DNA from: Promethearchaeota archaeon
GTDB lineage: Archaea > Asgardarchaeota > Lokiarchaeia > Sigyniarchaeales > SOKP01
Length of the DNA stretch: 64,000 nucleotides
Assembly: GCA_016840165.1 (NCBI GenBank)
Contig: JAEOSU010000070.1
Span: forward strand, 72,620 to 136,619
Direction of reading: 5' to 3'
Shown here: positions 1,068 through 63,259 of the stretch, piece after piece
Layout: each line of letters begins with the position of its first letter
How positions within the stretch are numbered: the stretch's first letter is position 1
Made by a program: the position numbers and the translations under genes
Notes under the pieces: generated by a model
What the model saw: only the letters and a program-made list of their open reading frames with translations
The model's database searches: none
Told to the model about the DNA's origin: nothing

Positions 1068-3344
1068 TTGCACATTAGACGCTTTAAACTTACTAAAATT
1101 AGAATAAAGGATTTCACACCGATTATTTTAGTAATGCTATTGCTTTTTGTATCAATAGCATGTGCAAATATGCTTATTCCCAGTTATGCTTCAGTCCAGT
1201 TGGAATTTCTTGTCCCAGAAGCATTATTAGCGATCCCAGATGCTTTTTTTGTATTAGTTAGTGCGTTTTTTGCATTAATCTGGGGCTATTACACGGATCG
1301 TGTTGATAGATCCAAATTAATTATGGCTGGAGCATTTTCATGGACGATTGGGATGCTACTAACCGCTTTTTCTATAAATTATGAAATGCTCATCATTTCA
1401 AGGATGCTTTCAGGGGCAGGACTTGGTTGTGTCTTACCAGTTGGATATTCAATTATCTCCGATTCTATTCCTCCTGATGAACGATCAGGATGGTTTGGTA
1501 CGCTAGCGATCCTTAGTTCTGTTTCAAATGGTATCGGACAAGCGTTATCATCCTTTTTAGGACCAATATTGACTTGGCGCTTCCCCTTTTTTTTACTTTC
1601 AGTAATAAGTATTGTAATTGTTTTTATCCTATTTTTTGTTAAAATACCACAGCGAGGTGCGAGAGAAGAGGAATTGATAGAATTAGCCCAAATGGATTTA
1701 GAATATCAATACACGATTTCAAAAAAAGATTTATCAAGTATCGTTAAAAAAAAAACTAATAGGTACTTAATAATTCAAAGCTTCTTTTCGATTATTCCTG
1801 GTACTATTACTATATTTTTTCTTACTTCAATGCTAAATATTTATTACTTTAATGAATTGCCAATAGAAATACGATTACAAACAGCAACGATCTTCGCAGG
1901 TTTATTAGGAGTCGGCTATATATTGGGAAATTCAATTCTCTCCTATCTCGGAGATATTTTATACAGAAAAAATAAAAAAAATCGCACAAGATTAGCCGCA
2001 ATATGCTTAATACTCTCTGTACCTTTTTATGTTATAACTCTATTATTAATCAGTCCTATACAAATAGCCAATTTAGATATTTCCTATCCCACAGGACCAA
2101 TAGAAACCTCGGAAATAGCTAGATATATGTTTCTAACGATTGGAGAAATTTTTTCTAAATATCCAAATTATATTTACTATTTAATTTTTGGTTTGATTGG
2201 TACAATCTTTAGTGCAGGACCTGTAGCAAATAGAAATGCAGTGATGATCGATATAAATTTACCAGAGCATAGAGGCACCTCTGTCTCATTTTTGAACTTA
2301 TCAGAGCAGGTAGGTAAAGGATTAACCCTCTTAATCTCCTATTTTTTAATTACTTTTCTAGGAAGTATTTTTCAGATGATGCTCTTTTCTACTTTATTCT
2401 GGATTCCAGCAATCGTTATGTGGATCCTCGCTACACGAACAGTTGGAAAAGATTTAAATGTTAAATCCATGATTTTATCTGAAAGAAAGCAAATTAGTTT
2501 ATTAGATTACATTTTCGAATTAGAAATCCAAATGGACAGAGGAATTCAAAAAATACACGATGCACGATATTATATTTTTTCTGACTCTAAGAAATTTGAT
2601 GCTTTATTATCGGATGCAATCAAAATTTTCAATTACTGCGAAAGAGAAGGAGAAAATCGAAGTATTACGAACATTGGAGAAAAATGTCGAAAATTGAATG
2701 TAAGAGCTAAATCCATTAAACAGATGGCGAATCAGATATTTAAAATATTGAAAAATGAGGACTTATCGGCAAAGGAAAGAGACATTTTAAGTGAGGATTT
2801 GCGACAAATTGATTTAATGATTGCGGAAGGGAAAAAAAGTACTTTTGGAGAGCTTCAAATCTATTATGAAGATGCTTATCTAAAGATTATTGAAGCACGG
2901 CTCCTACGGAAAAATGATTTATTAAAATGTATGTCAAAAATTATTGATGCAATTAAAATTTATGAGAGAGTTAAAAATCTTTTAAATGAGAGGTTAGAAG
3001 TAATAAATGATACTTCTGACTTACCTCAAGAAGATTTAGTGGCATATGAAAAAGAGAAAAAGCTATATCATAAGGCTTCAGAATCATTGAAGGCAACAAT
3101 CAAATTAAAAGAAGAATTTAAGGGAATTTTTAAAAAACTTGAAGAAAAAGGCATTATGAAAGCAGATTTAATGAAAATCTCAGAATTAACCAATGAATAT
3201 GATGTAAATCTGTCAGATATCATATTAGAAACATTTGGACAGGATAAAGAAACAAAAAACGCGATTCTTAAAATAATAAAAGAGATAGATATCGTTTTTA
3301 ATAAATATGATGATTGGAAAGAAGTAGAGTTAAATGTTTTTTAA
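1068..3344 (+). CDS. MFS transporter fused to ~290-aa soluble alpha-helical C-terminal domain
   Basis: MFS motif A (WGYYTDRVDRSK), about 12 TM segments to ~aa 460, then charged helical region. Confidence 0.8.
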   Translation: MHIRRFKLTKIRIKDFTPIILVMLLLFVSIACANMLIPSYASVQLEFLVPEALLAIPDAFFVLVSAFFALIWGYYTDRVDRSKLIMAGAFSWTIGMLLTAFSINYEMLIISRMLSGAGLGCVLPVGYSIISDSIPPDERSGWFGTLAILSSVSNGIGQALSSFLGPILTWRFPFFLLSVISIVIVFILFFVKIPQRGAREEELIELAQMDLEYQYTISKKDLSSIVKKKTNRYLIIQSFFSIIPGTITIFFLTSMLNIYYFNELPIEIRLQTATIFAGLLGVGYILGNSILSYLGDILYRKNKKNRTRLAAICLILSVPFYVITLLLISPIQIANLDISYPTGPIETSEIARYMFLTIGEIFSKYPNYIYYLIFGLIGTIFSAGPVANRNAVMIDINLPEHRGTSVSFLNLSEQVGKGLTLLISYFLITFLGSIFQMMLFSTLFWIPAIVMWILATRTVGKDLNVKSMILSERKQISLLDYIFELEIQMDRGIQKIHDARYYIFSDSKKFDALLSDAIKIFNYCEREGENRSITNIGEKCRKLNVRAKSIKQMANQIFKILKNEDLSAKERDILSEDLRQIDLMIAEGKKSTFGELQIYYEDAYLKIIEARLLRKNDLLKCMSKIIDAIKIYERVKNLLNERLEVINDTSDLPQEDLVAYEKEKKLYHKASESLKATIKLKEEFKGIFKKLEEKGIMKADLMKISELTNEYDVNLSDIILETFGQDKETKNAILKIIKEIDIVFNKYDDWKEVELNVF

Positions 3345-3351
3345 TTACATA

Positions 3352-3648
3352 TTAATTGTTCATTAATTCAGAGGACAAAATCTGTTTGAAAGTATGTTTT
3401 TCTCCTTGAGATAATTCTTCTACAGCTTTCCCTTTATTATTATAGTGATCTGCATTATCATGATTGTCAAATAAGTTAATCAATACGATGAGACAATTAC
3501 GTAATTCTAAACTATTACTATTTCCGTTAAATTTTGACATTATCTTTATTAATAGATTGCTCAACCATAATCTGTTTAAATCTGACTGAACTAGACCTTC
3601 TTTTTCTTTTTTCTCATAGAATTCTAAAACTCTGGCTAAACAATCCAT
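3352..3648 (-). CDS. Hypothetical protein (~98 aa)
   Basis: ORF; ATG 3648 follows an AGGT SD-like sequence (track start GTG 3708 less likely). Confidence 0.6.
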   Translation of the reverse strand: MDCLARVLEFYEKKEKEGLVQSDLNRLWLSNLLIKIMSKFNGNSNSLELRNCLIVLINLFDNHDNADHYNNKGKAVEELSQGEKHTFKQILSSELMNN

Positions 3649-3901
3649 TATCTTCTTACCTAAAATCCAATTTAAAATCCAACAGTTAAATAAACTGTAA
3701 GATCCCACACATCAACCGAAATATATATTCTTCAGTAATACAGATGATAGTTTACCTTTAAAAATATTTTTGGTTGAAATTCACGAGATTTTAATGAAAT
3801 GTACAAATCTTTGGAAATTAATTAGAATAGATCAGATTATAGAAAATATTACTTCTTATTTTGAAACGTTAGAGAGTAAATTGTAACAAATATAAGTAGA
3901 T

Positions 3902-41925: not shown

Positions 41926-42241
41926 GAATGAAAATGTCAGGAGCAAATATATCTGAACGTATGGGTTTGGCTCTTATAGATGAACAAATTAAAAGATTAC
42001 TCCGAAAACATATACACTTTAAAAACATTAATAATCAAGCATGATACGCAATGAAATGGTATAAAGCAATTTTTAATTAATTTCTCTCTATAATCAATCT
42101 AACTTAGAATATTTATTTATTAAAAATAAAGTAAATTTAACAAAAGTTTCAATAGAGTATACCCTAAGCTATATTTTTTTATACTCCATAAATGTTAAGT
42201 TCTAATTGAAATATATACATTCATTACATAGGTGAGAAATT

Positions 42242-44389
42242 ATAGTTAAAGTAGCATGTTCATCCTCTCTTTGCGAACTAGAGGAGGAGGAAGAGGAAGA
42301 ATCTTTTTTTGAAAAAAAATTCTGGTATTTTATTATTCCTTCAGCTATCTTACTTGGAATCTCAATTTTTTTAGAGTTTGCATTTAAAATTGTATTAAGC
42401 GCTCAAATTCTTGCTATTGCTTCAGCAATTCTTTCAAGTTCTGGTATTGTTAAGGAAACATTCGAAGATGTTAAAAAGAAAAAAATTACTGCTAATCTAT
42501 TAATGTTAATAGCTGGCGTTGCTTCATTTTTTATACTACATGGTCAAGAAGGTGCTACTGCATTACTATTATATGCAATAGCAGAAAGATTGGAAGAAAT
42601 AACTACTGAAAAATCAAGAAATGCTATTAAAAAATTACTTGAACTTGCTCCTGATGAAGCATTACTGAAATCTGACAAAGGATATGTGAATGTTCCTTCA
42701 AAAGAAGTGAAATTAGGGAATATAGTTGGGATAAAACCTGGAATGAAAGTACCCTTGGATGGTACTATTGTAAAAGGAAGTTCCTTTTTTGATGAAAGTG
42801 CAATCACTGGTGAATCTATCCCAGTCTTTAAACAAGAGGGTGATAAAATATTTGCGGCTAGTTTGAATTCTGATAGTTTTGTAGATGTCGAGGTTACAAG
42901 AGAAAGTTCAAATACAATTGTAGCTCAAATTGCGGAAAGCGTAAAAATTGCTCAGCAAAATAAAAGTAATCACGAAAAATTTATTGAAAAATTTGCTAAA
43001 TATTATACTCCTATTATTCTTCTAGCATCCATTTTAGTTATGCTAATTCCCTCTTTATTAGGACTTAACTTTTTTGATTGGTTTTATCGTGGATTAGTTT
43101 TACTTGTAGTTTCATGTCCTTGCGCATTAACACTCTCAAATCCTTTGGCTAATATTAGTGCTTTAACTAAGCTTGCTAGAGAAGGAATAAGGGTTAAGGG
43201 AAATAAATATATAGAGTTAGCTGATAATGTGCAATTAGTAGCATTTGATAAGACTGGAACTTTAACAGAGGGAAAATTAAAAGTTTTTGATGTAATCAGC
43301 CATGGCATTTCAAAAGAGAGATTACTACAAATCGTTGCGAGTTTGGAAGCAATTTCTGAACATCCTATTGGCAATGCTATCGTTAGTCAATCGAAAGTAA
43401 TGGATTTACCTTTATTAACTGTAAAAAATTTTAAAGTAATAAAAGGAATGGGGTTAGAAGGTGTAATAGATAAAACTCTATATCATATAGGAAGTCAAAA
43501 ATATTTGGAGAGCATAGGTTATGAGATACCTAATGAAGACTTAAACTATTTCGGCAGTCAAGGAGTCATACCTGTATTTCTTGGGAGCAATAATAATCTT
43601 TTAGGGTTAATAACCATTAGGGATGTTTTAAGAGTGTCAGCTCCAATATTAATTGATGAATTGAAGAAAATGGGATTGGAAACAGTCTTAATTTCTGGAG
43701 ATCACCAAGCAGTATGCAACACTATAGGTGCTTGTTTAGATATGAATGTTGCTCAAGGTGAACTTTTACCCGACCAAAAATTAGAAATAATACGTTCAAA
43801 CAAAGAAAAGAATAAAAAAGTTGCCATGGTTGGAGACGGGATTAATGATGCTCCATCTTTGGCATTATCTGATCTAGGTATTGCCATTGGGGCCTCGGCG
43901 ACAGATTTAACTCTTGAAACGGCAGACGTCATTATTATGAGCGATGATTTAAAGAAAATTATAACTTTTTTTAATATCGCAAAAAAGACCAATAAGATTA
44001 TAAAACAAAATATTTGGGGCTCTATTTTAATTAAAGTGTCATTCGCAATTCTCACTGTAATTGGGTTAATGACTTTATGGTTGGCAGTTGGAATTGGAGA
44101 TATGGGAGTCTCATTAGCAGTATTATTCAATGGGATGAGAATTTTCAGATATAAAGTTAAATACAAAGATCTGAGCACTGATATGGTTGAGAATGAAGCA
44201 AAATCAATTGTATGTAGAACATGCAATACACGGAATATTTTACCTCAGCATCACGGAAGAGATATGGTGAAAACCGAAAAAAAGTTGGTATGTTGGAGAA
44301 AACTATTAAACAGTGATGAGTTAGAACCGTGCGAGGAAGAAATTCCATTGTTATGCCCCCAATGTAATAATGAATTAGAGGTTATTTAA
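42242..44389 (+). CDS. Heavy-metal P1B-type ATPase (Zn/Cd/Pb, ZntA/CadA-like) with C-terminal Cys/His domain
   Basis: TGES, CPC, DKTGT, SEHP, GDGIND, TM8 DMG; frame open 87 codons upstream of ATG 42503, adding two TM helices, from an ATA after AGGTGA. Confidence 0.9.
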   Translation: MVKVACSSSLCELEEEEEEESFFEKKFWYFIIPSAILLGISIFLEFAFKIVLSAQILAIASAILSSSGIVKETFEDVKKKKITANLLMLIAGVASFFILHGQEGATALLLYAIAERLEEITTEKSRNAIKKLLELAPDEALLKSDKGYVNVPSKEVKLGNIVGIKPGMKVPLDGTIVKGSSFFDESAITGESIPVFKQEGDKIFAASLNSDSFVDVEVTRESSNTIVAQIAESVKIAQQNKSNHEKFIEKFAKYYTPIILLASILVMLIPSLLGLNFFDWFYRGLVLLVVSCPCALTLSNPLANISALTKLAREGIRVKGNKYIELADNVQLVAFDKTGTLTEGKLKVFDVISHGISKERLLQIVASLEAISEHPIGNAIVSQSKVMDLPLLTVKNFKVIKGMGLEGVIDKTLYHIGSQKYLESIGYEIPNEDLNYFGSQGVIPVFLGSNNNLLGLITIRDVLRVSAPILIDELKKMGLETVLISGDHQAVCNTIGACLDMNVAQGELLPDQKLEIIRSNKEKNKKVAMVGDGINDAPSLALSDLGIAIGASATDLTLETADVIIMSDDLKKIITFFNIAKKTNKIIKQNIWGSILIKVSFAILTVIGLMTLWLAVGIGDMGVSLAVLFNGMRIFRYKVKYKDLSTDMVENEAKSIVCRTCNTRNILPQHHGRDMVKTEKKLVCWRKLLNSDELEPCEEEIPLLCPQCNNELEVI

Positions 44390-59530: not shown

Positions 59531-60508
59531 ATGGAAAGTCTCCCTAATATAGATTTACTAACTGGTTTACTAGAAAATTATATGTATGAAGTAGATGGTG
59601 TTGCTGCTGTAGCGATATGTGACCGTGAAGGTTTAATTATTGCGTCAAAAAGCAGAGAAAAGGATGATAAGGAATCTGATTCGGTTATAGGAGCAATCTC
59701 TGCATTCATAGACAAGTATGTTGATAAAATAAAGAACGAGTACCAAACTCAAAGCAATTTCTTTAATATTACTTCTATGGAAGATAAGAAGTTAGCATAT
59801 TGTTCTATGGGAGAACATTCTATACTCACAACCATTGCGAACCCAATTACCTCTAATAATGAATTAAAGGTCTATTCAGAGCATATAGCGGCTAAGGTGG
59901 AATTGATTCTCGATGGGTATGAAAATGTTTCAATTGAGATTCCAGAAATCATCCGAGTATTATCAAGAAGGAAGGAGGGGAAACTTCCAACCGGGAGATA
60001 TACAGCGAAGTTGATTTTAACTGGCGATTTTAAAGTAGGAAAGACCTCGCTTATTCGGCGCTTTACCGAAAATAGTTTTTTAGATAGCTATATTTCTACA
60101 ATTGGAGTTGAAATTTCTAAAAAATCTGTAGTTTTAGACCAAAATACCCAAGTAAATTTTGTTCTTTGGGATATTGGAGGACAGATTTCCCAAATGGCAC
60201 CATACCGTAAGAGATTTTATGAGGGAGCTAATGCTGCTTTTATTGTTATAGATAGAACGAGAGAAGAGAATTTGAACAGTATTAAGAAATGGTACGATGA
60301 TATCAAACAATCTATTCCCGCAAAAATACCAATAGTCATTGTTGGGAATAAATCGGACCTAAAGGACGCTATTTTGATTAGTGAAAATGAAATTAAAGCA
60401 ACCGCTAAAGAACTTGGATTTCACAGTATAATGACCAGCGCTAAAACCGGAGAAAACGTTAATGAAACCTTTTTGTATATAGCATATCGATTTATCGAGA
60501 AAGCATAA
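59531..60508 (+). CDS. Roadblock/LC7 domain fused to Rab-like small GTPase
   Basis: VAICDREGLIIAS roadblock pattern; GDFKVGKT, STIGVE, WDIGGQ, NKSD, SAK. Confidence 0.9.
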   Translation: MESLPNIDLLTGLLENYMYEVDGVAAVAICDREGLIIASKSREKDDKESDSVIGAISAFIDKYVDKIKNEYQTQSNFFNITSMEDKKLAYCSMGEHSILTTIANPITSNNELKVYSEHIAAKVELILDGYENVSIEIPEIIRVLSRRKEGKLPTGRYTAKLILTGDFKVGKTSLIRRFTENSFLDSYISTIGVEISKKSVVLDQNTQVNFVLWDIGGQISQMAPYRKRFYEGANAAFIVIDRTREENLNSIKKWYDDIKQSIPAKIPIVIVGNKSDLKDAILISENEIKATAKELGFHSIMTSAKTGENVNETFLYIAYRFIEKA

Positions 60509-60610
60509 TTAAAAAATGTAAATTTATTTAGGCAAATCTGTTTTTTACATCATAGAAATGTTGTCTATTATTCCTCAATAGGAATAATTAATTTTATTAA
60601 ATAATAAAAG

Positions 60611-61546
60611 GTGATATATGAAATTCTAAAAGTCGAATTCAATGAGATTCTTGCAACTTGAAATACTGCTGGTTATCTTATGGGATTCTCAGTGAAAGAG
60701 ATGACGTACATGGAGAAGCATTTAATATATCTCACGGATCAAGAATATGCGGGACCATGGTTCAGTTTTAAGTTAAAAGGAAAAAATATTGGTACTGTCC
60801 CCGTAGTTTTAAAAAATATCGAACCTACCCCCATATATCAATTAATAAATAGTAGGAAAGGGACTAAAATTGACAGAATTACTCTTGACTTTGATATCAG
60901 GGAATATTTAAAAAAGCTAATTCGCAGGAAAGAAATTGCCCCTATAGAATTTAAAGATGAAAATCATAAGATTCGAATGTATATCGATGTTTTCTTGAGA
61001 CGGGGGCAAGCACCATATATGAATACTTTCTTTACGATTAAGAATAATTCTGATTTTGATTTAATTGATCTCTCAATGTTTTTCATTTTTGATTTTGATA
61101 TTAACGGTTTAGAAGGATTCGATAGCGATTCAGGAAACTATGATGAGCAGGAAGATATAATCTATCAGTATGACGCTTCAAATGTCCATGCAGGATTCTC
61201 TACTCTTTCCAAGCCGACGCATTATGAAATAGGTCTCACTCGCGAATTTGATCTAGGCAAAAAGCGTTTAAATCTTACTAATACGATTCATAATAAACCC
61301 GGGGAGATCTTATCAGCCTTACAAATAGAATTTAAAACACTTGAACCTAATCATTCATTCCAAACCGCTTTAACGATCTCGGGGGGCTATAGTAAAAAGG
61401 AACTATTTGAGAATATCAATGAAGGAAAGAGAGATGCTATCAAGTATTTGGCGCAAGTGAACCGATCTGTTAAATCAGAACAACGTAATCTTCAAGAAGC
61501 AGGATTTATAAAAATAAATTTGCAAGAAGCAAAAGATTGTAATTGA
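60611..61546 (+). CDS. Candidate selenoprotein of unknown function (Sec encoded by TGA 60659-60661)
   Basis: Frame opens at 60608; GTG 60611 or ATT 60623 (after AGGTGA); reads ...KVEFNEILAT-U-NTAGYL- into the called ORF 60680; SECIS-like hairpin right after the stop. The gene itself is high confidence, Sec moderate-high. Confidence 0.7.
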
Positions 61547-61549
61547 TCT

Positions 61550-61626
61550 TTAATCCTCTTAATGATTCAAATAAGAAAAACAATATAGAAATTATTTGAT
61601 GAAGACTTTGCGCGAGTGAGGATTAA
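61550..61626 (+). promoter_or_regulatory. Eukaryote-like (Lokiarchaeal type) SECIS element in 3' UTR
   Basis: Helix I TTAATCCTC/GAGGATTAA; core ATGAT (61562-66) opposite TGAA (61600-03) giving tandem GA/AG pairs; helix II TCAAATAA/TTATTTGA; apical loop begins GAAAAA. Confidence 0.7.
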
Positions 61627-61633
61627 TTGATTA

Positions 61634-62110
61634 TCAATTTCGAAGAGTTGCTAAAACTTTTTTCTCATCCATTAAAAAATGGATGGCATCAATACAATTA
61701 AAGAAAGCGATATCGCTGTTCATGAGGGTTTTGGAAGCTAATCCCTCTTTTCCTAAAATTGCAATACCAATGATAGCGCTTTTGATCATCATATAATCAT
61801 TGTTTCCATTGCCGATTGCGACTGTTTTTTCTTTTCCCAACTTCAATAATTCATTATTTTTTAGTTCTGCCTCTGAGAGTTCAGATGGAGAGATTCTAAT
61901 TGATTTAACTCCTAATCTTAAAGCAACTTTATCAAGATTTCCTCGAGTATCAGCCGAAATTAAAAATATATTAAAGTATGATTTTAGCTTCATAATTTTC
62001 TTCTTTAGTTTTGTTGGGACAATTCCATCAAACTGTATTGTACCATTTACATCAAATATAATATTCTCTATTTTTATTTTACCATAATTAGGAATATCAA
62101 AAATTCTCAT
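61634..62110 (-). CDS. HAD-superfamily hydrolase (soluble P-type ATPase-like)
   Basis: FDVNGT, SADTRG, IGNGNND motifs. Confidence 0.85.
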   Translation of the reverse strand: MRIFDIPNYGKIKIENIIFDVNGTIQFDGIVPTKLKKKIMKLKSYFNIFLISADTRGNLDKVALRLGVKSIRISPSELSEAELKNNELLKLGKEKTVAIGNGNNDYMMIKSAIIGIAILGKEGLASKTLMNSDIAFFNCIDAIHFLMDEKKVLATLRN

Positions 62111-62158: not shown

Positions 62159-63259
62159 CTAGTTTAAAATCTGAGTATAATAGCCTACAATTCTTAACTT
62201 GTTATTGAAACGATTTAATTCAGTAATTATGCCTGTAATAGGCGTTCCATCACTATAGATGTTTTTATCAAACTTCATGGTCATAGTTCCACTCTCACCG
62301 GGAGATATTTCTTTTCCTTCTGTAAATTTGAAAGGAGAGATCTTAAGGTCCACAATTGCATAGTATTGAACCCCAAGACCAGGTATTAATTTTCCTTCCT
62401 TAGGAGTGTAATATTTATTAAGAAATACCTGTGCTTTAAACTCTTTAGTTGGTTTCAATATACCTTGAGTTGCTAATATATGATCTCTATTAATCTCACT
62501 AGGAGAAATATTACCTTTTAATGCAATTCCTACGCGATCGCCTATAAAAGCTTCTTTAAAATTCCTATCATGTTTTTGAATGCTTCGAATTATAACTTTT
62601 TTCCCTACACTTTCATTCCCGGTGAGTTCAAGCATTTGGCCTGCATGAATTTCTCCCTTATTCACTATCCCAAGAATAACCGTTCCAATCCCTTTTACGG
62701 GAAAAACATGATCTATTACAATTTTTGAATATTTAATTGAACTATCTTGGGCAATTAGGACTATATCGTTAAAATCTGAGATCTTATCCTTTAATAATTC
62801 CAGATCCTCCTTACTTCTAACTATAAATGTTTCAGTACCTCGCAAACTAGAAGTATTGAGAATTAAATTAATTTTCTTAACCGTATTAGCAAGCTTCCAT
62901 TCATTTTTTTCATTGATACCAGTGATGACTACTAAAGAATGAGTCTGATATAATTGATGATGCAGATCCATCCCAACTAATATTTCTCCAGTAATCGCGG
63001 TTAAATCATAATTTAGATCGATTACTAAAATATGGATATTAGTCATTGCGAGCGTTTGAAGGAAGGGTTTAATCTTTTCGGGATATTCAATTGGTGTGAG
63101 AGCACAAAATACTTGATTGCGTTTTATATCCAACCTATTATAGAATTGAATATCAGATCTCGTTCCAGGCGATCCTAAAGTTTGCCCAATGAGATTATTT
63201 TGACTCTCACTTTCTCCAAAGATACCTACGATAAAATTAGCTTCTTTAACTTCACTCAT
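62159..63259 (-). CDS. Archaeal SelB-like translation factor homolog (degenerate G domain)
   Basis: Domain II DHVFPVKGIGTVILG, IRSIQKHD, GDRVGIALK; N-terminal domain lacks GxxxxGKT. Confidence 0.75.
   Translation of the reverse strand: MSEVKEANFIVGIFGESESQNNLIGQTLGSPGTRSDIQFYNRLDIKRNQVFCALTPIEYPEKIKPFLQTLAMTNIHILVIDLNYDLTAITGEILVGMDLHHQLYQTHSLVVITGINEKNEWKLANTVKKINLILNTSSLRGTETFIVRSKEDLELLKDKISDFNDIVLIAQDSSIKYSKIVIDHVFPVKGIGTVILGIVNKGEIHAGQMLELTGNESVGKKVIIRSIQKHDRNFKEAFIGDRVGIALKGNISPSEINRDHILATQGILKPTKEFKAQVFLNKYYTPKEGKLIPGLGVQYYAIVDLKISPFKFTEGKEISPGESGTMTMKFDKNIYSDGTPITGIITELNRFNNKLRIVGYYTQILN

Follow-up and report, generated by a model that had tools for sequence, protein, structure and literature searches.

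A probable new selenoprotein family of Asgard archaea, with an in-frame UGA upstream of the annotated start and a eukaryote-like SECIS element

The window analysed here is a 64,000-nucleotide (nt) stretch of contig JAEOSU010000070.1 from a Promethearchaeota archaeon (Lokiarchaeia, Sigyniarchaeales; assembly GCA_016840165.1), whose genome is 99.7% complete and ~32% G+C. At ATG 60680 it includes the start of a called open reading frame (ORF) of 288 codons, annotated as a hypothetical protein, whose frame is open further upstream, via a single TGA, back to a TAA at 60605-60607; a hairpin starts 3 nt past the stop codon of the ORF, ~900 nt downstream of the UGA. The first-pass annotation, made from these letters alone, had proposed that the TGA is a selenocysteine (Sec) codon and the hairpin a selenocysteine insertion sequence (SECIS), and its coordinates for the ORF, the TGA, two possible starts (a GTG at 60611, inside an AGGTGA motif, and an ATT), the AGGTGA and the hairpin were all exact. 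Comparison with orthologous loci makes it highly probable that 60623-61546 encodes a 307-residue selenoprotein of a new family. The features of the locus, all on the forward strand, are as follows, with the evidence for each in brackets.

60609-60614 (+): Shine-Dalgarno-like AGGTGA (read in the sequence)
60623-60625 (+): ATT, probable non-canonical start codon (family comparison)
60623-60658 (+): leader of 12 codons (ILKVEFNEILAT), an edge beta-strand in the AlphaFold2 (AF2) model (amino-acid conservation, entropy, AF2)
60659-60661 (+): in-frame TGA, probably read as Sec, residue 13 (invariant column, alignment with Cys)
60662-60679 (+): six codons, NTAGYL, from the Sec codon to the annotated Met (fixed 18 nt, coding-type entropy)
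60680-61543 (+): annotated core of 288 amino acids (aa), a predicted stand-alone beta-supersandwich (homologs, AF2, Foldseek)
61538-61540 (+): TGT, the only Cys codon of the called ORF, encoding Cys306, candidate partner of Sec13 (conserved in orthologs)
61544-61546 (+): stop codon TGA (read in the sequence)
61550-61626 (+): putative SECIS of the Lokiarchaeota (eukaryote-like) type in the 3' untranslated region, 3'-UTR (fold, covariation, covariance model R1)
59531-60508 (+): Roadblock/LC7-Ras-like GTPase gene, the conserved upstream neighbour (Pfam Ras and Robl_LC7)

The residues around the proposed Sec read ..VEFNEILAT-U-NTAGYLMGFSVK. The hairpin consists of helix I (61550-61558 paired with 61618-61626), AUGA at 61562-61565, helix II (61567-61574 paired with 61592-61599; 8 bp plus a U-U pair), an A-rich apical loop of 17 nt that opens with GAAAAA, GA at 61601-61602, and a side hairpin at 61605-61617. 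Searches of the window by family models gave little: the 288-aa protein has no match in Pfam, Rfam at gathering thresholds finds two tRNAs only in the whole window, and a permissive Rfam scan of 61480-61700 finds no SECIS family, only chance-level matches to C/D-box snoRNAs (E 0.5-8) that mirror the UGAUGA/kink-turn-like core.

Taken alone, the features of the window are within chance, and their significance rests on comparative evidence. The 17 open codons upstream of the ATG are unremarkable at 32% G+C, and the fold z-score of the 3' hairpin is only -1.5; that neither is significant within the window is the point in favour of explaining the TGA as a sequencing error or a recent nonsense mutation accompanied by a chance hairpin. 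Comparative data refute this explanation and leave it virtually no probability: the same TGA and 3' element are present in ~80 independent assemblies, and the gene in 123 of the 134 species-level genomes of f1, the GTDB family that holds the window genome and the TGA form.

The in-frame TGA and the leader

The frame upstream of the annotated Met was read in each of 80 orthologous loci fetched with their flanks. A phyletic survey of 400 genomes of the phylum located the TGA form in the f1 genomes counted above and only distant forms elsewhere, among them members of two other GTDB families, f4 and f28. In 76 of the 80 loci the distance from the TGA to the ATG is exactly seven codons, and in the remaining four the same TGA is displaced by an insertion. 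Start, stop and Shine-Dalgarno sequences were tabulated for the 76 loci without insertion: every one has the TGA, and the spacer from TGA to ATG is invariably 18 nt. Column entropy was scored by codon position in 68 loci. It is 0 in the TGA column, 0.72/0.31/1.41 over the three codon positions of the leader, 0.94/0.38/1.33 in the six-codon spacer and 0.48/0.28/1.18 in the core, and is flat (1.44/1.44/1.34) upstream of the start. The three-base periodicity on both sides of the TGA is a coding-type signature. Among orthologs, Leu codons of the leader are TTA in some loci and CTT in others, a synonymous change, and W-H takes the place of F-N in part of them; the change is of the protein type and not of the RNA type.

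The upstream sequence in the 76 loci reads Shine-Dalgarno GGAGGT, ATA, V-L-K-V-x-F-N-(E/D)-(I/V)-L-A-T, TGA, N-x-x-G-Y-(L/V/I), ATG, the leader being counted as 13 codons. The codon at the start position is ATA in 63 of them, ATT in 4, ATC in 3 and TTG in 1, with GTG in genus g2 (a genus within f1) and ATG in f28; a Shine-Dalgarno-like pentamer lies 5-9 nt ahead of it in 69, and 26 have in-frame stops no more than four codons upstream. The homologous codon of the window is ATT 60623, 8 nt past GGTGA, and by this comparison translation most likely starts there, which gives 307 residues with Sec at position 13. Of the two starts offered in the first-pass annotation, the ATT is therefore retained, in a family whose starts are AUA, AUU or AUC and, in two lineages, UUG or GUG; the GTG at 60611 was rejected, as it is part of the Shine-Dalgarno motif and the closest ortholog (L017, 88% identical) has GTT in its place, and the protein of ~311 residues with Sec17 first given is shortened accordingly.

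Non-AUG starts at Ile codons after strong Shine-Dalgarno motifs recur (window 60623, window 42230-42244 and L017). The P1B-ATPase gene of the window (42242; 42230-42244) has AGGTGA, six nt, then ATA, and the Roadblock-Ras GTPase ortholog of L017 opens with ATC (L017:354-356), where the others have ATG.

The same arrangement could in principle be two cistrons, in which a leader peptide of 13-14 residues would end at the UGA as a stop, the 288-aa protein would be made by reinitiation or translational coupling from the AUG 18 nt downstream, and the 3' hairpin would serve as a terminator, as a stability element or as a binding site for a kink-turn protein. Such an arrangement would agree with the database proteins. 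The homolog search (threshold E 1e-3) returned 392 clusters, of which the 120 listed are 273-292 aa long, nearly all of them 286-292; among the matches listed, no protein extends upstream of the Met, each starting there or being without its N-terminus, and the N-terminal MGFS, Met included, is invariant in 32 of 32 aligned orthologs. It would also agree with the use of UGA as a normal stop of this same gene (the terminal codon is TAA in 57 of the 76 loci, TGA in 11 and TAG in 8), with the position of the 3' element between convergent genes, where terminators occur, and with five alleles that have a frame-breaking insertion of 28-32 nt between the UGA and the AUG. However, gene callers start at the Met regardless, so that uniform annotation is no evidence, and the codons from UGA to AUG evolve as in-frame coding sequence of fixed length in the 76 loci. 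The Cys orthologs described below each consist of one polypeptide, in which a Cys occupies the UGA column, and the 3' element has an AUGA/GA core, with a model of it (R1) that picks out a known SECIS. Moreover, the g2 ortholog, which starts with GTG and reads ..N-I-C-I-T-U-D-N-R-G-Y-L-F-G-F-S.., has Phe at the position of the annotated Met, and the f28 ortholog L112 has Lys; with neither Met nor another start at that position, the TGA must be read through in both. Two separate cistrons are thus very improbable. ATG 60680 may additionally be an internal start, and it may be speculated that this nearly invariant AUG, seven codons past the UGA, yields a Sec-free short form when selenium is scarce.

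In the single selenoprotein that is preferred here, translation would initiate at the near-cognate AUU (AUA in most orthologs) 8 nt past a strong Shine-Dalgarno sequence and pass through the 12-codon leader; UGA 60659-60661 would be decoded as Sec under the direction of a Lokiarchaeota-type SECIS in the 3'-UTR; and translation would go on through the annotated Met into a beta-supersandwich that ends in a conserved Cys. The mechanism as such is known; the unusual traits of this gene are that it probably starts at a codon other than AUG, that its SECIS has a hairpin at the junction, and that some alleles have a candidate intron at the Sec codon.

The 3' element

The 3' element directly follows the stop codon in nearly all loci, with a median distance of 13 nt from stop to AUGA. 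The 5' part of its consensus is AAAUCC, five variable nt, U-A-AUGA, U, UCAAAUAA and AAAAA(A), and the 3' part is a CC..GG ministem, AAG, UUAUUUGA, U, GA-A, a 4-bp side hairpin and GGAUUU; most copies have the loop-closing G. An alignment of 72 elements (A3, from which L096, with AGGA, was excluded) has AUGA without exception, and g2 has AA in place of GA. RNAalifold recovered only helix II from A3, owing to alignment gaps, and the structure was then supplied by hand. With this structure 90.5% of the cells are paired, versus 26-50% when partners are slid by 1-3 columns, and compensatory change is found in 17 of the 20 pairs, values that are reached by 0 of 500 shuffles. In L050, for example, AAU -> GGU stands opposite AUU -> ACC, and L041, L076, L073 and L081 provide further cases.

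The SECIS of Lokiarchaeota (lokiSECIS) has been described as AUGA, a stem of ~9 bp, loop-opening adenines, a closing G, and GA after the stem (PMC4989117), and the eSECIS-like type I/II model places AUGA ahead of an upper stem of 7-15 bp and GA (or AA) behind it, in the 3'-UTR (PMC11227280). The 3' element fits both the description and the model, and on these sequence features it is classed as a SECIS, of the eukaryote type that had first been proposed. Standard SECIS models fail on Lokiarchaeota (Mariotti et al., PMC4989117). Compared with eukaryotic type II SECIS elements and the eSECIS-like type II elements of Asgard archaea (Huang et al. 2024, PMC11227280), it is alike in its kink-turn AUGA/GA core, an upper stem of the 7-15 bp class, unpaired adenines, ministem and location in the 3'-UTR, but its helix II is shorter (8 bp plus U-U), and a side hairpin of 4 bp, which is conserved, turns the structure into a three-way junction. 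The window copy, in contrast to type II elements, is without the ministem and type I-like, with its 17-nt loop, and the Rfam SECIS models do not match it.

The covariance model R1 was built solely from elements of the new family, and its genome-wide search scored 150 of 7576 candidates. It gives the window copy 70.7 bits. The best non-self match in the genome (38.7-38.8 bits, E 2.6e-4) lies directly 3' of a Prx-like gene, beginning with the stop of a 170-aa ORF that is interrupted by two in-frame TGAs (..W-U-K-H-U.., UxxU) that belongs to the PrxL selenoprotein family known from Lokiarchaeota. With filters off, R1 scores 57-95 bits at the UGA loci L096, L097 and L101 and finds nothing significant at the Cys loci L099 and L100; the element thus co-occurs with the TGA forms and is absent at the Cys forms scanned, as had been anticipated for a true SECIS. 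Two weaker matches were dismissed as false, one within a 541-aa ORF on contig C15 (24.6 bits) and one within the coding sequence of SelD (21.9 bits).

Several other elements were noted. L096 has AGGA for AUGA, yet scores 95 bits with R1 (L096:2361-2457), and in L046 (L046:2362-2470) the element has diverged, with a helix II that is shorter and contains GC, and R1 does not recognise it. The f28 element is unrelated in sequence but alike in layout, with AUGA, then a GC-rich stem of 9 bp around a 12-nt loop, then GA; it overlaps the end of the coding sequence. The SelD gene of this genome has Sec at residue 20 (..K-I-H-G-U-S-C-K..), and its 77-nt 3' intergenic region (L004:2509-2585, G000:C40) has an AUGA and no match to R1, which agrees with published work on a separate, SPS-type lokiSECIS.

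Relatives, fold and selenocysteine machinery

An exhaustive profile-free search identified distant relatives (23-30% identity) that have an N-terminal extension of the same length with a CxxC motif. In alignment A2, which includes these Cys orthologs, P0131, P0135, P0139, P0138, P0140, P0158 and P0183 have the second Cys of their CxxC in the TGA column, the Cys orthologs reading ..C-x-x-C-K-E-K-G-Y... Homology therefore continues upstream of the TGA, with Cys at the TGA column of distant orthologs, as the first-pass annotation had expected if Sec is encoded there. Cys forms include hypothetical proteins of the cultured Lokiarchaeia Ca. Lokiarchaeum ossiferum (NEF87_004727) and Promethearchaeum syntrophicum (DSAG12_02345), which share with the window protein their length class (309-316 aa), the register of the N-terminal motif and the C-terminal Cys, and differ from it in sequence (23-27% identity), in having CxxC instead of xxxU, in their ATG start, and in having Phe, not Met, seven residues past the second Cys.

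CxxU forms are found in genus g2 and, with canonical starts, in f4 and f28, where f28 reads M-I-V-E-S-R-M-L-C-S-K-U.. and the f4 forms read ..F-D-Y-V-C-T-V-U.. and ..C-S-I-U... In the f4 loci L114 (G282:C329) and L115 (G280:C123) the in-frame TGA of CxxU is upstream of the annotated start, and database entries of this kind, among them P0129 (288 aa), are therefore truncated as well. By these comparisons the family as a whole is CxxC/CxxU, and most of f1, including the window genome, has lost the first Cys while Sec stayed invariant. The initial view that there is no CxxU or UxxC motif thus applies to the window protein and not to the family. The penultimate Cys that had been singled out as a possible partner is conserved family-wide, being common to the Cys, CxxU and window forms and invariant in 32 of 32 orthologs. 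Sec13, which would occupy the second position of the ancestral N-terminal redox box, and Cys306 are the sole chalcogen residues of the window protein; with the first Cys lost, the likeliest chemistry would be a reversible Sec13-Cys306 selenylsulfide, or joint binding of a metal or selenium by the two flexible tails.

AF2 on A2 predicts an all-beta supersandwich followed by three C-terminal helices (mean predicted local distance difference test, pLDDT, 89.6; predicted template modelling score, pTM, 0.88), with a strand at residues 2-6, the leader as an edge strand, and the last eight residues flexible or uncertain. Foldseek matches the model to N-terminal domains of glycoside hydrolase (GH) families GH94, GH116 and GH15 (E 7.5e-8 to 1e-5; query template modelling score, TM-score, 0.4-0.58), a resemblance that had been guessed correctly from the sequence. 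In a protein atlas the family falls in three Asgard hypothetical-protein clusters (305, 288 and 233 aa), with a weak feature-level lead to GH94_b-supersand/SOGP_N clusters. The supersandwich domains of GH94 cellobiose/cellodextrin phosphorylase, GH116 beta-glucosidase and GH15 glucoamylase are alike in overall fold, but the new protein has ~12% identity to them, no (alpha/alpha)6 domain, and redox-type terminal tails, and is not to be filed as a glycoside hydrolase. A hydrolase or phosphorylase of the GH94/GH116/GH15 type was accordingly rejected: nothing follows the sandwich and its three helices, there is neither an (alpha/alpha)6 barrel nor a Pfam match, and of the PDB matches only the N-terminal domains align. 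Also rejected was a thioredoxin-fold CxxU selenoprotein, for which the CxxU of g2, f4 and f28 would speak, but the fold is an all-beta supersandwich.

Genes were identified for SepSecS (476 bits), for SelB (246 bits), for a PSTK-like protein that falls short of the curated cut-off (153 bits), and for SelD, whose frame contains a TGA. Of the Sec machinery that the first-pass annotation called for, the protein components were thus located and tRNA-Sec was not detected. SepSecS is present in 128 of the 134 f1 genomes; as nearly all f1 genomes have both SepSecS and the TGA form, their co-occurrence does not discriminate between explanations. These genes bear on the alternative that the UGA is read through without Sec, by near-cognate or suppressor insertion of Trp, Cys or Arg, the 3' element being a generic read-through or stability signal. 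The undetected tRNA-Sec would fit this, as would the fact that the identity of the inserted residue is inferred only. On the other side, SepSecS, SelB, the PSTK-like protein and Sec-containing SelD are encoded; the 3' element has every defining feature of a lokiSECIS and resembles the SECIS of the two-Sec gene in the same genome; the aligned residue of homologs is a Cys in CxxC, the classic Sec/Cys exchange; and UGA is an ordinary stop elsewhere, including in this gene. Insertion of another amino acid consequently keeps only a slight probability, and the decoding of the UGA as Sec is strongly preferred.

Several observations weigh against a selenoprotein all the same. A search of the genome for tRNA-Sec with Rfam RF01852 gave only tRNA-His and tRNA-Arg below the cut-off; ARAGORN at default settings gave none, and its five low-threshold candidates were rejected by Rfam; and a scan of 20 kb around SelB and SepSecS found nothing. 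The published tRNA-Sec of Lokiarchaeota has a 31-nt intron in the T-loop (PMC4989117), and such an intron could defeat the RF01852 and ARAGORN models. The proposed start codon is non-canonical and deduced from comparison only. No Cys form occurs at the Sec column among the 80 loci within f1, and no convincing SECIS was found downstream of the f4 CxxU forms L114 and L115. The AF2 model has pLDDT <50 for residues 9-15, around Sec13, so that the proximity of Sec and Cys is unreadable from it. Finally, the insertion alleles break the frame, which a selenoprotein accommodates only if the insertion is removed and two cistrons would tolerate.

A SelB-related gene was also noted in the window, convergent with the selenoprotein gene: 62159-63259 (-) encodes a 366-aa EF-Tu/SelB-like paralog that has Pfam domains 2 and 4 only, scores 77 bits with the SelB model, and has a P-loop that looks degenerate (GIFGESES). 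Such a paralog lies within 1.5 kb of the selenoprotein gene in 20 of 81 orthologous loci.

Genomic context, known systems and insertion alleles

The Roadblock-Ras GTPase gene is directly upstream on the same strand, at a gap of ~100-170 nt, in 77 of 81 Sec-form loci. The same GTPase gene is upstream of the Cys-form loci L099 and L100, the latter on a 6.0-Mb L. ossiferum-type chromosome, and by this shared neighbour on the same strand the Cys forms at both loci are considered positional orthologs of the new Sec gene. Its conserved location downstream of the GTPase gene hints that the selenoprotein has a function connected with this GTPase, with which it may act. A complex prediction from the GTPase alignment (A5) and the core protein alignment (A1) returned 'no answer' (score 0.00), which speaks neither for nor against binding. 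As a working model, the protein may be a redox or chalcogen-binding module whose Sec and Cys tails form a selenylsulfide or bind a ligand. In f28, the CxxU homolog (L098:1131-1991 and 1998-3875, G307:C6; L112, G308:C17) adjoins a GcvH-like gene and, convergently, SepSecS; the GcvH-like/SepSecS adjacency is found in 4 of 5 f28 genomes, and may link the protein to selenium metabolism.

The selenoprotein families listed for Asgard archaea are SelD, FrhA/VhuU, HdrA, FrhD/VhuD, Prx-like, AhpF-N-like and DsbA-like, among 11 archaeal families in all (2016 Lokiarchaeota analysis, 2024 survey of >400 Asgard genomes, 2026 review). None of the 11 resembles the new protein, in keeping with the initial impression that it is unlike known Lokiarchaeota selenoproteins, and no publication on this family was found in the literature searched, which included reviews up to 2026 and covered a part of the journals. 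The closest comparison is with PrxL.1 and PrxL.2 and their lokiSECIS (Mariotti et al. 2016, PMC4989117). Both the new family and PrxL are restricted to Asgard archaea, with Sec in a CxxC-type box, few or no other Cys, and a 3'-UTR SECIS of AUGA, a stem of ~9 bp, an A-rich loop start and GA, and R1 matches the PrxL SECIS. Unlike PrxL, which has a thioredoxin fold, the new family is a predicted beta-supersandwich with its redox box in the first 14 residues and the partner Cys at the extreme C-terminus; most of its f1 members have lost the first Cys of the box, its start is non-AUG, and its SECIS carries two additions, a ministem and, between helix I and GA, a side hairpin.

The new family would be the twelfth archaeal selenoprotein family, with a non-thioredoxin fold and a presence in ~92% of the genomes of a large Lokiarchaeial family, f1. 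Asgard selenoproteins have so far all been found by homology to known selenoproteins or Cys homologs (PMC11227280, PMC13188914), and the Sec-form database records encountered were all truncated at the same internal Met. That such a family was missed implies that homology-driven surveys overlook lineage-specific families, and Asgard selenoproteomes are probably undercounted. The family also supplies ~80 natural variants of a eukaryote-like SECIS, with covariation and a junction hairpin, that bear on the evolution of the eukaryotic SECIS and of its archaeal binding factor, and its Cys orthologs in the cultured L. ossiferum and P. syntrophicum make its function testable.

Five alleles have extra nt between the TGA and the next codon: 31 in L059, 29 in L064 (which sits on a complete chromosome), 28 in L080, 31 in L095 and 32 in L119. 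None of the five has lost the leader, the TGA, the six-codon spacer or the SECIS. The hairpin after the Sec UGA is located as follows.

L059, L064, L080 and L095: 1391-1500 of each, hairpin after the Sec UGA
L119: G217:C43:89915-90095 (-), hairpin after the Sec UGA

The lengths are not multiples of three and leave different remainders, so that a fixed frameshift cannot explain them. The 3' end of the insert, CAAG, pairs with exon CUUG, in which U and G of the UGA are included; beyond an AAU bulge lies an inner hairpin of 8-10 bp with compensatory differences between alleles, and AAA or AUA follows CAAG. Excision between the second and third nt of the bulges restores ..A-T-U-N-x-x-G-Y-V-M-G-F-S.. 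in all five, a restoration that is partly by construction, given a 2-nt AA ambiguity, and the outer exon-exon helix is weak. The cut positions of bulge-helix-bulge motifs were reportedly set out by Marck and Grosjean in 2003.

The archaeal bulge-helix-bulge motif is a 4-bp helix with 3-nt bulges on opposite strands (PMC7714728). Judged by its sequence, the insert has a somewhat better than even chance of being a bulge-helix-bulge-like mRNA mini-intron whose splicing is predicted; if unspliced, the insertion alleles would favour two cistrons for the genomes concerned. It is like the bulge-helix-bulge intron of cbf5 pre-mRNA in Crenarchaeota (PMC2738675) in being a short insert in a coding gene, bounded by 3-nt bulges and a 4-bp helix, after whose excision the frame is restored; it differs in occurring in Asgard archaea at the codon after the Sec UGA, in the weakness of its outer exon-exon helix, and in being known here from sequence alone. 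If true, splicing at the Sec codon would, as far as found, give Asgard archaea their first reported intron in a protein-coding gene. The fuller scenario, of a selenium redox switch that works with the Roadblock-Ras GTPase and whose mRNA is spliced in a sub-clade by the tRNA-splicing endonuclease at a bulge-helix-bulge at the Sec codon, is unlikely on present evidence. A repeated mobile element was rejected as the origin of the insert: a pattern search of the five genomes found it to be single-copy in each.

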